A stretch of DNA of 64,000 nt from Octopus vulgaris (taxonomy: Eukaryota): NCBI GenBank assembly GCA_951406725.2, contig OX597821.1:85870001-85934000 (forward strand), given 5' to 3'. The position numbers were made by a program, and so were the translations under genes. How positions within the stretch are numbered: the stretch's first letter is position 1; each line of letters opens with the position of its first letter. Shown one piece after another: positions 361-37,639 of this stretch. Under the pieces are notes generated by a model. The model was not told the DNA's origin. It saw only the letters and a list, made by a program, of their open reading frames with translations, and did no database searches.

Positions 361-587
361 AAATCACATATATATATATGTGTGTGTGCATGTATATATA
401 TATGTGTGTGTGTGTGTATATATATATATATATATATATATATATATATATATATATAATAATAATAATATTAGGGAATAAATCCAAACTTACAGGGAAA
501 AATTAGATTTATAATATATATATATATATAGTACGTTTAAATATTTGTTGTGCAAGATTTTTTATGTGAAGTCGTGTGTTGAAACAG

Positions 588-1071
588 ATATTGTTATATT
601 TCGGAATGGTAATATTGCCAGTTTAGCCAATAAAAACACACGCACTATATATTTGGTGTTATTTTGCTTCAGTGTTATCTATTTTTTACATTAATCTTAA
701 TCTTATTTCGGCCAGAGTTCTTTCGTCACACTCCTGTGACCGCATCAGTGGTCCTTTGTTTTCTTTCTTATTTGTGTCTCTCCTTACTATCTTTCGTCAC
801 ACTCCTGTGACCGCATCAGTGGTCCTTTGTTTTCTTCTTTCTTATTTGTGTCTCTCCTTACTAACTTAGTAAGGAGAGACACAAATAAGAAAGAAGAAAA
901 CAAAGGACCACTGATGCGGTCACAGGAGTGTGACGAAAGAACTCTGGCCGAAATAAGATCAAGTTTAATGTAAAAAATAAATAACACTGAAGCAAAATAA
1001 CACCAAATATATAGTGCGTGTGTTTTTATTGGCTAAACTGGCAATATGACCATTCCGAAATATAACAATAT
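588..1071. repeat. Long palindrome (centre 865) with an internal tandem duplication; Penelope-like pseudo-LTR candidate
   Basis: ...tctctccttactaa c ttagtaaggagaga...; arms of about 205 bp; a segment of about 70 bp is duplicated in the left arm; (TA)n on both sides. Confidence 0.9.
906..949 (+). ncRNA. Variant hammerhead-like motif (core CUGAUGC); mirror copy at 710-753 on the minus strand
   Basis: CCA-CTGATGC-G-GTCAC aggagt GTGAC-GAAA-GAAC-TC-TGG. Confidence 0.45.
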
Positions 1072-1140
1072 ATACATATATATATATATATATATATATA
1101 TATATATATATATATATATATATATATATATATATATATG

Positions 1141-1487
1141 TAATACATCAGGTACAGGTCATCAGCAACGAGTGAAAATTATGTTAACACAATGAGAGAC
1201 AAGTACGGGACAAAATATCATCAAAAGAAGTCTAACCCCTCCTCAGATGTCGATTGTCAGTTACTCCCCTATTTCGACCTTTCAACGACAAGACAGGAAA
1301 CCTTCATAAAACAGCAACATCCAGAAATAGGGAGTGATTAACAGCCGACAACTGAGGAGGGGTTAGACTTCTTTTGGTATTTTGTCCCGTACTTGTTTCT
1401 TATTGTGTTCACGAATTTTTCACTCGTTGTTGATACCCTCTTCTTATTGTGTATTTTCCAGTATTTTATCCTGTACTTGATGTATTA
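1141..1487. repeat. Imperfect inverted repeat (arms about 135 bp, spacer about 48 bp)
   Basis: taatacatcaggtacagg...ctccctatttc versus gaaatagggag...cctgtacttgatgtatta. Confidence 0.85.
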
Positions 1488-1822
1488 TTTATTTATTTAT
1501 TTATAATCGAACGCCACGCAGCCTTGTCCACAGTACGTTTTTACTTATGTGTATATATATATATGTGTGTGTGTGTGTGTGTGTGTGTGTGTGTGTGTGT
1601 GTGTGTGTGTGTGTAGATTGCTCCACCGCATACACGCTATATATTATCTGTACTGTTCGTATTATTTGAATCAGGGAGCTAAACTCAACGCCTTATGCAC
1701 GGAACAAATTACAAACATTTCTTCTAATTTGTTGGTCATTTAGGCTCCTTTTTGCCTTTTCTGGACATTGTCCTAACATTTCAGCTCATAATGAATTATT
1801 ATTATTATTATTATTATTATTA

Positions 1823-33294: not shown

Positions 33295-33632
33295 TCACCT
33301 CCTCCAAAGAAGGCAAGGGTGCAGCCCTCCGCTGGCAAAGTCATGCTCACATCTTCTGGGACCGGGACAGAGTAGTGATGACAGAATTCCTGGCAAAGGG
33401 TACCACAATTACAGGAGCCTATTATTCTTCACTTTTGAGGAAATTAAGAGAAGCTATCAAAATCAGGAGGCAGGGCAAGATCAGCAAAGGCATCCTCCTC
33501 CTGCAGGACAACGCTCCGGTCCACAACTCGCGCGTCGCCAGATCAGAAGCACAGGCATGCGGCTATGAACTCCTCCCCCATACCCCTACTCTCTTGACCT
33601 TGCACCCTCTGATTTTCACCTCTTCCCTAAAC
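33295..33632 (+). mobile_element. Mariner transposase fragment
   Basis: SAGKVM, GTTITGAYY, LLQDNAPVH and a frameshifted YSLDLAPSDFHLFP. Confidence 0.88.
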
Positions 33633-36551
33633 AATACTTACGGGCGAGTATTTGTATTCTGGTGGTTATGGCGACGTGGGTTCCAGTTGACCCGATCAAC
33701 AGAACAGCTTGTTCTTGAAATTAACGTCCAAATGGCTGAGCACACCACAGACACACATACCTTTCACAAAGTTCTCAGGGAGATTCAGCATGATACATAA
33801 TGGGACAAGGTTGACTCTTTGATATACAGATACTACTCATTTTTGCCAGCTGAATGGACTGGAGCAACGTGAAATAAAATGTCTTGCTGAAGGACACAAC
33901 GCGCCGCCAAGAATCGAACTCGCGACCTTTTGATCGTATGCCACGCGCCTTCGCTACCAGCGAGTACTAAAGTACAAACCGAAGAAGCCATTTATCCGTG
34001 ATTTCCCTCTGCATCAGTATCATTATGGCCGAGCTATTGGGGGGAAACAAATCAACAAAACACCAACCAGCTGGTAATAGAAGTCGGCATAAACAGATGA
34101 CAGCAATGGCGAATGCTTCATAATTTTTAATATATTTAGATATTGTTTCTGTTCACTCACATGAAATACATGTCGTTTCACAAATGTTTTGACGTTTTTC
34201 ATGCATATCATTTTAAATATATATTGCATACTTTCTGTTTTCTAATGTGTGTGTGTGTGTGTGTGTGTGTACATAGTTCACAATGTGTGTGTGTGTGTGT
34301 ACGTGTGTGTGTATGTCTACATAGTTCTAGTATTTTTAATATATATCATTTTCAATAATTTTGAACTGGGATGGAACGAATACGTTTTTTTGATTTTTAA
34401 ATCATACATACATACATACATACATATATATATATATATATATATATATATATATTCATACATACACACACATATATGTGTATGTATATATATATATATA
34501 TATATATATATATATATATATATATATATATATGTGTGTGTGTGTGTGTGTGTGTGTGTGTGTATGCATGTATTTATATGTGTGTATGCATATATATATA
34601 TATATATATATATATATGTGTGTGTGTGTGTATCGTAGACTTCTCCTAGAAAAATAATATAAGTTATAGGCAAAAAAATATTAGAAAAGCTTGTAAGTTT
34701 TTAAGTTCTACTTTAAACTTTCAGTTTCCTAAATTTCATTTTTTCCGCAAAACGTTGGTTCAATTTCTCTTTAGTGGAAAGACGAATAAACGATTCTGTT
34801 GTTTAGGAGTTAGTGTTAGAGAAAGGGTAAGAGAGGGAGAGATAGAGGGGAAGAGGGAGAGAGAGTGTGAGCTAATGAAGGAAATGGGAAGAGGAGAGAG
34901 ATTGAGAAAAAGTGTGTGTCGTGTGTGTGTATGTGTGTGTCCACGAGGAATGAAATGGAACGAGCGAGAGAGGCAGTGTGAATGAAGGAATAAAATAGAA
35001 ATTGTAAGAGTAGGCGAAAACAACGATGCAACCAAATGAAAAAAGACGAACACTTAACGATAGAGAATATATACGGCTTAGCGTCAAAAACTCGGAAGCA
35101 AAAATTGTAAAACTGAGAATCTAAAAGATACAGAGATTCCTACTGGTGGGGCCTGGAAAACTTGTGTTGGGTCATGGTGCCGTAGTCGCCAGTCACAAGG
35201 TTCTCATTAAACTGATTCACTTTATTTTTCTTAGTCAATAATGTACTTTTTTTTTGTACTCAGTACTTAATAAAAGAATTACCGGTAGATTCTTTTGTAT
35301 TGAATAATTATGATGAAATATCAAAAATAAAGTTGTTTTCTTTTTCTTTTCCAATCGCCAGTGGGGCATACATTTTTCTGGAAAGTTATGGTGGGGCCTG
35401 AGGGAAAAGAGGTTGGAAAAAACTGGTCTAATGTAAAAGCAAGCGAAATCCAAGATCAAAATGTCACACGGACATAGAAATGACAAGAAAAAAAAAACAA
35501 CTAATGCAAAGAAACTTGAAAGTGAAAGTAGATTCACTAAGGCAATAAACACTTAAAACAAATGAAGAAAGGGGATGCAGCGATTGCTCTAAATCCAATC
35601 AACAGGTGTAGTAAAACTGTTTCAAAACATGAAATAATTGAATAATATGAAGAAGCCAGAATAGAGACCGTTTTAGAAAGATGGGTACTATATGTTCCGA
35701 ATATGGTGGCGTTTATATATATTTTCCCAGCCTCATGGTTCCAGGTTCAGTCCTACTGCGTGGCACCTTGGGCAAGTGTCTTCCAAAAGATATACATATA
35801 AGATTCAGTTAAACGAGGTGAGGCACCTAGTTAGATCGAAATAAAATGCACACGCATCAATTATAAATGAATACCAACCTTGGAACAGAAGTACTGGCAG
35901 AATGATATTCGGGTAATTCATGCAGTTACATTGGAGCCAACTGAGTTTATAATCCGCTTTTGAGCCATTCAAGGCATGTACGTTTTATTAAATATACAGT
36001 CTATAATATACTTTTCACATGCCCGTTAAAGCCACTCTTTCTAATTTCTCTATAAATTCGAATGTTATTTCTAAAATTCCAATTATCTAACAATGTTGGT
36101 TGGATTCGTCATGATCAAGATATTATCTCACCTATCTGATACTTACTCTTACTCTTTTGCTCTTTTATTTGTTCCAGTCATTTGACTGCGGCCATGCTGG
36201 AGCACCGCCTTTAGTCAAGCAAATCAACCCCAGGACTTATTCTTTGTAAGCCTAGTACTTATTTTATCGGGCTCTTTTGCCGAATCGCTAAGTAACGGGG
36301 ACATAAACACACCGGCATCGGTTGTCAAGCGATGTTGAAGAGACAAACACACACACAAACACACACATATATATAGATATATACTTTCCGTCTACCAAAT
36401 CCACGCACAAAGCTTTAGTCGACCCGAGGCTATAGTAGAAGACACTTGCCCAAGGTGTCACGCAGTGGGACTAAACCCGGAACCATGTGGTTGGTAAGCA
36501 AGCTAATTACCACACAGCCACTCCTGCGCCTGTTTAAAACTTGTTTAAAAT

Positions 36552-36633
36552 TTTACCTGAAGATGGTGGATTATATGTGATAATGTAATCTATGTATGCA
36601 TCAATAAAATACTACCAAAACGGCTGTCGTAAA
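36552..36633 (+). ncRNA. Degenerate hammerhead (G12 changed to A)
   Basis: TTTAC-CTGAAGA-T-GGTGG...CTACC-AAA-ACGGCTGT-C-GTAAA; near-palindromic stem III; the change from ccgaaa to ccaaaa fits CpG decay. Confidence 0.6.
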
Positions 36634-37639
36634 TATTAATCTTCATTTGTGTTCTTTTTTATACTTACGCCGCACGGTTTAAACTAAATTTGGTACTTGC
36701 ATATCTTCAGTATCCTACCAACACCTGATACCTTCATAGTTTGTTTTACCTGACTGTGAAACCTATGTTACTTTACCCAGCAATTTCTGGCGCCCTACGT
36801 GTTGATGTGCCTAGATTCTACTGAATTCTTTAACTAATGTATGTATGTATGTATGTAGTGTAGTGGTAAAATTGTATCTAATGATGTAATGATATACGTA
36901 TATGCAGTAAGTGCTCAGGATGGCTTACTACTAAAACTCCGGCTTAAACTGCGACTAAAACAAAAGTAGTGTTGTAGCAAACTAGCAATGAATGGCTATA
37001 AGTGGTTCATCATTGAGCATATATATATATATATATATATATATATATATATATATATATATATACATATATTAGAAAAAAGAATGAACAGTCAAAATAT
37101 GGGTATCACTTTTCACTTTAAAGCACAGAATTTATAATTTAAACACGATTGTAGAATTTTTACAATGGAGTGCTGGAGTCAAATTTATTACGTAGATAAG
37201 GGAGTGAGAAGTTGTGCACAAAGTCTCTTTCAACTGTCTTTTGGAATAGCTGCGTATGCGGTGCATGTCTCAGCCAACGAAGATTTCCATGTAAAAGCCA
37301 ACTCTGCTATCTTCAAAAAAGAAGAATTAAGGAATATCCTTATTAAAGGATATTAGTAGTTAGTTTTTAAGTCCATCGTCGGAGAGAGAGTGGGGTAGAT
37401 TATGAGTGGAGGGCTTGTGTGAAATAAGAGACAGTATAAAATAAAGTATAAAGGAAAGAGTCATGAATGCATGAGAGTAGATAGAGACTGACTGGTATAG
37501 CAAAGGCATATATAACTTAAGAGTTAAAGGGACACACACACACATATATATATATATAGGGAGAGTTCACGAAAAAAAACAAAAGACGAAGACAAACAGA
37601 TGTATTAGTATAACGCTTCCCTGAAAACTACGATCAGGT

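Follow-up and report, generated by a model that had tools for sequence, protein, structure and literature searches.

Hammerhead cassettes facing TA microsatellites in an Octopus vulgaris locus, probably truncated ends of several Penelope-like element families

Why should hammerhead-like motifs that share neither stems nor flanks point, within one stretch of octopus DNA, towards TA microsatellites? The stretch, hereafter the window, comprises 64,000 nucleotides (nt) of Octopus vulgaris (assembly GCA_951406725.2, contig OX597821.1, positions 85,870,001 to 85,934,000). An original prediction made from its letters had placed eight hammerhead cores there, each followed on its 3' side by a (TA)n or (TATG)n tract (a short taataatat only in the copy at 30577), and had attributed them to non-coding families that derive from Penelope-like elements (PLEs) or resemble retrozymes. 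Based on the analysis below, we consider it very probable that the cassettes are 5'-truncated pseudo-long terminal repeat (pseudo-LTR) ends of several unrelated endonuclease-bearing PLE families, inserted by target-primed reverse transcription at (TA)n. The families are probably of the Neptune/Nematis type.

Hammerhead motifs and their distance to TA tracts

A TA-blind descriptor of type I hammerheads, allowing at most one core mismatch and requiring stems I and II of at least 3 bp and a self-complementary stem III, was applied to the full 64 kb in both orientations. We letter the eight predicted motifs by their starts (A 710, B 906, C 7820, D 19701, E 20047, F 30577, G 32495 and H 36552). The descriptor gave six matches, at 712-751(-), 908-947(+), 19701-19786(-), 20047-20082(-), 32495-32531(-) and 36552-36633(+), all among the eight, and these represent five independent loci and one mirror copy (A/B). 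When the sequence was shuffled 100 times by local blocks with dinucleotides preserved, the mean was 1.05 matches per shuffle; at a score of at least 7, which all six real matches reach, the shuffle mean was 0.13 and the maximum 1, a contrast somewhat flattered by the descriptor having been composed after the motifs were known. A looser scan, in which two core mismatches and a slipped stem I were allowed, returned the same six and one more hit at 59520, whose score of 6.0 is at chance level (null mean 0.25 at that score).

The type I three-way junction with its conserved core boxes is present in A/B, D, E, G and H and fails in C and F. The cores of D and G are intact, and each of the other matches carries a single core change (Table 1). 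An unpaired extra base between positions 9 and 10.1 was observed in all six matches, compared with 56% of the null matches, although motif D can also be parsed without it, and the G10.1-C11.1 pair is found in four of the five independent loci, D having A-U or G-U instead. The palindromic stem III was demanded by the descriptor and therefore gives no independent evidence within the window. Predicted dimer folds gain 9-15 kcal/mol for B, D and H and lose 5-6 for E and G, the monomers of the latter two being without stem III.

As predicted, the cassettes proved to be unrelated to one another: one of 21 pairs fell below p<0.05 against shuffles (p=0.035). For two of them a related sequence exists at another place in the window (37559-37617 for 20047 and 31814-31864 for 36552). 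In Rfam, no hammerhead family appeared among the listed 150 of 211 matches, which held microsatellite-driven microRNA-like matches only. The motifs do resemble the minimal hammerheads of metazoan PLE pseudo-LTRs, which Cervera and de la Pena (2014, PMC4209133) describe, in the portion covered, as type I with a short stem I, the extra base between 9 and 10.1, G10.1-C11.1 and a palindromic stem/loop III, occurring mostly as solitary copies or as opposite-strand pairs 100-700 bp apart and with extreme diversity within one genome. These motif traits, this layout and this heterogeneity are also seen here; the families, in contrast, are new, and in two of them stem II carries a long insert of 52-54 nt and the palindrome reaches 8 nt. 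Where the motifs lie relative to (TA)n was measured here and not, as far as covered, in that paper.

On their 3' sides, A, B, C, D, E, G and H reach a TA or TATG tract within 54-203 nt, whereas F breaks the predicted rule, its nearest (TA)5+ lying 386 nt away inside a short interspersed nuclear element (SINE). Within 210 nt downstream, a TA or TATG tract is met by 13-18% of random positions. Compared with random non-repeat positions of the whole window, downstream TA was enriched in proximity with p of about 0.001-0.002. Because the first 38.5 kb are rich in TA (43 tracts) and contain all the motifs, the test was repeated within this part, and the enrichment remained (p 0.002-0.01 for five loci; 0.008-0.02 for four loci, with D and E merged). 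The upstream distance showed no enrichment there (p 0.25-0.55), nor did the control repeat CA/TG, as frequent as TA with 43 tracts (p 0.55-0.75). The TA tract is on the 3' side at five of five loci and on the 5' side at D only. The predicted orientation and distance therefore go beyond mere tract density, which the original prediction had named as its caveat. SINE-internal TA was considered as a cause of the adjacency and rejected: no tract that faces A, B, C, D, E or G is internal to a SINE, although that of G lies at a SINE tail.

Penelope-like relatives and insertion anatomy

Family E is very high-copy in three organisms. When the stretch 19943-20139 was compared, at 80% likeness or more, with the contigs of four of 24 listed runs, family E contigs were found in all four (1922, 3870, 2771 and 903). 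At position 20054, the base with which the stem III palindrome becomes perfect makes up 77-87% of the family depth, and since this is the majority base, the palindrome of E is supported independently of the descriptor. Most loose ends at 19971-19973 consist of TA and, after it, the element end known from 37559. The family and the 37559 piece also have in common an insertion of 2 nt at 20017. The family records end at 20087, the 5' extent lying beyond their reading. At core position 6 (20075, U in the window), no other base occurs among the rows listed for the four runs, although an absent row is no proof of identity, and a family-wide variant core is possible; changes at this position are associated with low activity in the covered part of Perreault et al. 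(2011, PMC3088659). The E core, searched as a degenerate pattern, had no match in metagenome, prokaryote-genome and viral contigs.

The decayed PLE reverse transcriptase (RT) that had been predicted was found at 37641-38490. With the frame at 37955, a HMMER search returned 382 relatives at E<=0.001, while a word-index protein search with the RT fragment found nothing. Relatives (65 of 150 proteins used) align to this interval with up to 47% identity (E 9e-53), and the rest of the window shows no alignment to them. No viral relative came out of the PLE alignment search. Pfam recognized a weak RVT_1 in three of 16 relatives and GIY-YIG in one, and a CX(1-6)CxxC linker, a pattern slightly wider than CX2-5CxxC, is present in all 14 endonuclease-bearing relatives among the top 60. 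The remnant in the window stops short of the linker region, and the GIY-YIG domain, C-terminal in position, is seen in the relatives alone.

Within about 25 nt of the RT match lies the piece 37559-37617(-), which aligns with the tail of E over 29 nt at 90% (E about 1e-3) and agrees with the loose-end consensus of family E including its 2-nt insertion. Lying just before the RT and against a TA tract, this piece is an inverted copy of the kind that classically precedes a 5'-truncated open reading frame (ORF). A profile of the 16 relatives led to ten metagenome PLE loci, and in two of them, L005 and L006, a hammerhead of the same type stands 164 and 128 nt past the ORF; in L005, (TA)9 starts 50 nt past the hammerhead. 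The abundance and TA ends of family E, its inverted tail at the RT remnant and the RT relatives with the same hammerhead behind their ORF agree with the predicted PLE origin. In L003, a hammerhead-like variant was noticed by eye behind the PLE ORF at 4968-5020, with a perfect 5' box and the 15.1-16.1 pair apparently swapped to U-A.

The insertion traits of PLEs, namely 5' truncation, a head-to-head inverted copy, a partial tandem and a one-sided tail, are found at A/B, at C and at 37559/RT. First, A and B form an inverted repeat of 185 nt with 96% identity (588-772 vs 887-1071), in which arm A extends about 57 nt, the tail, beyond arm B at the 3' end; at the centre lies a third partial copy, 790-867(-), with a 71-nt period, which stops inside stem III. 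Second, the 3' end of locus C is repeated once in direct orientation over 44 nt (8006-8049), with about 44 nt of tail attached to the repeat, and an inverted copy of end and tail makes a palindrome at 7965-8112. This second 3'-end copy is 355 nt upstream, with no ORF between. Given this flanking structure, motif C is counted as probably a decayed member of the PLE-type set despite its broken stems, whereas motif F is doubtful. Finally, for B and C the sequence with which the element continues is known, and their junctions have 4 nt (B) and 2 nt (C) in common with the TA tract (two of two testable), a sharing that may be chance. The TA itself is not a tail templated at one set point of the element, since the ends of A and B fall at different positions in it and the internal end at C runs into tail.

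Mechanism, comparison with known systems and alternatives

We suggest the following course of insertion, for which the steps are drawn mainly by analogy. The GIY-YIG endonuclease would nick a (TA)n tract, as published PLE biochemistry implies. The RT would then begin its cDNA at an internal RNA site about 50-200 nt past the hammerhead, or one tail-length further, copy through the ribozyme and mostly halt 25-80 nt beyond. Internal start, copy-through and early stop together would leave a hammerhead pointing at TA in each stub, and head-to-head pairs would arise from fold-back or template jumps. The ribozyme would be expected to cut only as a dimer or with help of protein, and is probably dispensable for insertion.

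Such insertions have precedents, here taken from the covered parts of the respective papers. Craig et al. (2021, PMC8557442) report partial tandems, inverted 5'-truncated copies, one-sided tails of 30-40 bp and (TA)n as preferred target, and cite a proposal that the CX2-5CxxC linker mediates the microsatellite bias of Neptune elements; a killifish Neptune paper (PMC12602865) leaves targets unmentioned in its covered part. Our set, probably of this type, resembles Neptune/Nematis in the C-terminal GIY-YIG of the relatives and their cysteine linker close to CX2-5CxxC, the hammerhead near the 3' end, the inverted truncated copies, the tail and the (TA)n bias, and differs in its tails (about 44-57 vs 30-40 nt) and in having no full-length copy in the window. 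Naiad PLEs, which have an N-terminal endonuclease and no canonical hammerhead, do not fit, since the relatives here combine a C-terminal GIY-YIG with hammerheads. The same insertion layouts and AT-rich simple-sequence targets are given by Arkhipova et al. (2013, PMC3846280). According to Frangieh et al. (2024, PMC11167929), the Poseidon protein nicks AT-rich DNA and cDNA starts at two internal RNA sites past the hammerhead, which define the tail; ribozyme cleavage is unnecessary in vitro, and the ribozyme cuts only with the protein present. Like Poseidon PAc of Anolis, the elements here have their 3' end past the hammerhead and would have two start sites defining a tail and AT-rich nicking, although PAc belongs to another clade and its initiation is reported as non-homologous to the target, in contrast to the 2-4 nt shared at both testable junctions here, which could be chance.

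Several observations weigh against this account. None of the window's hammerheads connects to a PLE ORF on its own strand, and the link to the RT is one 58-nt piece. Eight of the ten metagenome loci gave no descriptor match, three of which (L001, L004 and L007) have less than 300 nt downstream, and nine of the ten have no TA tract; the DNA past the TA in L005 resembles a further PLE fragment, comparable to E and D with their one common tract. Only D has TA on both sides, and its 5' tract is the 3' tract of E, which weakens the reading of a pre-existing target. Two of the eight predicted cores, C and F, were recovered by neither scan of the window, and as monomers the motifs here fold with ordinary z-scores (-1.1 to +0.4). 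The TA test is based on five independent loci of one window, and copy number and junctions were examined for one of five families. In that family, the junction is reached by a few percent of the contigs with a loose-end agreement of 0.51-0.75, and one loose-end row among those listed, 285 others standing outside the list, is not TA-like.

It is possible, and for some families may hold, that the copies were short non-autonomous PLE-derived units of about 170-350 nt, SINE- or retrozyme-like, copied in trans by PLE proteins, a view that departs from truncated pseudo-LTR ends in the template alone. Family E combines very high abundance with a short length in the window, and the second 3' end at locus C, 355 nt upstream without an ORF, is near the size of a retrozyme monomer of about 300 nt, though partial tandems of truncated copies also explain that locus. 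Non-LTR retrozymes (PMC7229834; 10.64898/2026.07.22.740005) are likewise non-coding, carry type I hammerheads and are likely PLE-mobilised, and Li et al. (2026, preprint, 10.64898/2026.07.22.740005) argue, in the part covered, that retrozymes derive from PLE pseudo-LTRs. However, those of Cervera and de la Pena (2020, PMC7229834, as far as covered) have canonical hammerheads in tandem repeats of about 300 nt, whereas the motifs here are of the minimal PLE type and solitary or inverted, the window contains no same-strand tandem array of related hammerhead units, and the tail of E adjoins an RT ORF. As truncated pseudo-LTRs suffice and no such array was found, the retrozyme-like part of the original prediction is not needed.

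Less likely, the TA was made at insertion, by an RT-slippage tail or by later growth of a short TA seed, and was not a chosen target. This would suit the one-sidedness of the tracts, including D, whose 5' tract is common with E, and PLE RTs are related to telomerase (PMC8557442, covered part). Against it, arms A and B both meet TA although their end points in the element differ by 57 nt, the internal 3'-end copy at C continues into tail and not into TA, the adjoining repeat varies (TA, interrupted TA, TATG), and (TA)n is treated as a target in the covered part of PMC8557442. That the motifs are chance matches and the TA proximity a matter of tract density is very improbable and largely refuted for A/B, D, E, G and H, though not for F: the number of tracts, the share of random positions that qualify, the late composition of the descriptor and the failure of C and F favour it, but none of 100 shuffles held more than one match at a score of at least 7, equally numerous CA/TG tracts had no effect, the stem III palindrome is complete with the base that most of family E carries, and the same descriptor matches 3' ends of unrelated PLEs.

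Window features and significance

The window is AT-rich, with a GC content of 32-44%, and dense in microsatellites, SINEs and remnants of long interspersed nuclear elements (LINEs). In the covered text and one text supplement of the 2026 Octopus vulgaris annotation (PMC13282606), PLEs make up 6.83% of the genome and ribozymes are unmentioned. The features under study are collected in Table 1.

Table 1. Positions in the window of the hammerhead cassettes and associated sequences, with distances (nt) from the motif to the nearest TA tract
Feature	Position	Strand	TA downstream	TA upstream	Details
Head-to-head inverted PLE end pair between two TA tracts	531..1067				arms A 531-793(-), B 866-1067(+)
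Hammerhead A, minimal type I	710..753	-	180		extra base after position 9; A9>C
Hammerhead B, minimal type I, same as A	906..949	+	126	376	A9>C; last 4 nt common with TA tract
PLE-type compound insertion at locus C	7651..8112	-			3' end at TA (7651)
Decayed hammerhead-like motif C	7819..7865	-	170		both core boxes present; wobble palindrome; stems I and II broken
Cassette D	19647..19864	-	54	78	TA tract on each side; intact hammerhead 19701-19786, long stem II, 8-nt palindromic stem III
Cassette E	19955..20127	-	92	4355	hammerhead 20047-20082, A6>U; very high-copy TA-ended family
Doubtful half-motif F	30577..30627	+			GAAA box and palindrome, i.e. 3' half only; no TA tract of its own
Relative of cassette H 3' end	31814..31864	+			52 nt, 77%
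Cassette G	32359..32556	-	136	1892	intact minimal hammerhead 32495-32531, 4-nt palindrome; short TA tract at SINE tail
Cassette H	36530..36836	+	385	1934	hammerhead 36552-36633, G12>A at CpG; 203 nt to (TATG)n
Inverted 5'-truncated 3' end of family E	37559..37617	-			lies directly between a TA tract and the RT remnant
Decayed PLE reverse transcriptase, core to thumb	37641..38490	+			stops and frameshift; endonuclease and 3' pseudo-LTR absent

Some further sequences touch on these elements. A second head-to-head inverted repeat, 1141-1274(-) and 1324-1437(+), has its TA tract in common with copy B; each arm carries a 5' hammerhead box and a hairpin without a GAAA box, and the repeat is possibly a PLE end with half a core. 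At 31385-31865(+), a hammerhead-like 3' half lies near 31460, and the final 52 nt of the interval correspond to the 3' end of cassette H; the hammerhead-like stretch 31410-31475 was dropped as a candidate, since it fails both scans and shows no alignment to H over the motif. Behind motif F, a 64-codon frame with two stops (30666-30857(+)) looks by eye like the start of a PLE ORF and had no match in the databases searched. A short C/T-rich run stands just before the TA in unrelated families (19647, 19955, 32359, 37559 and L005 1770), which may be chance, and a 40-nt unique piece between a TA/TAA tract and a TA tract (471-513) ends in a pyrimidine run, as several PLE ends here do.

Among the other repeats, a tRNA-type SINE that contains a (TA)n(TG)n tract is abundant, with copies at 4532-5008, 30859-31302, 31875-32330, 56981-57470, 62737-63160 and elsewhere. 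Its 3' part has 27 nt in common, at 89%, with the 3' end of a LINE at 20180-21920, which suggests a SINE/LINE pair. A unit of 184-185 nt forms short dispersed tandem arrays of 3-4 copies each (5265-5853, 10483-11160 and 27338-27998) besides single copies. Remnants of DNA transposons at 33294-33797(+) and 39910-40554(+) have a partial DDE transposase (E 1e-11) and a weak zinc-finger match, and a 164-codon frame at 41723-42214(-) has a weak macro-domain match below the cut-off (Pfam ThsA_Macro, E 0.027).

The motif, its heterogeneity, the opposite-strand pairs, the tails and the TA preference have already been published; the families are new, the biology is not. In the open full-text literature, most subscription papers lying outside it, we found no hammerheads of these families and no signed-distance test, and the supplements of Cervera 2014 and Craig 2021 may include them. 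What is added is several new PLE end families and a small, controlled quantitative check that hammerheads face TA on their 3' side only. With five loci in 64 kb, the hammerhead is a family-independent tag for PLE stubs that are otherwise unrecognisable, and a genome-wide map of the 3' ends of PLEs, their tails and their choice of target could be built on it.

The core changes raise a further idea, which we regard as rather doubtful. Some PLE families may have been amplified to very high copy number with a hammerhead that is catalytically crippled and keeps its fold, serving as a protein-docking or spacing element that places the internal start of the RT 50-200 nt downstream, while the RNA would pair over 2-4 nt with the nicked TA strand and so aid priming. 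The C at position 9 in all three copies of A/B bears on this idea, and a non-canonical core of family E, if family-wide, would bear on whether PLE ribozymes must cut. If it were true, families with crippled hammerheads would be natural test cases for what the hammerheads of PLEs are for.

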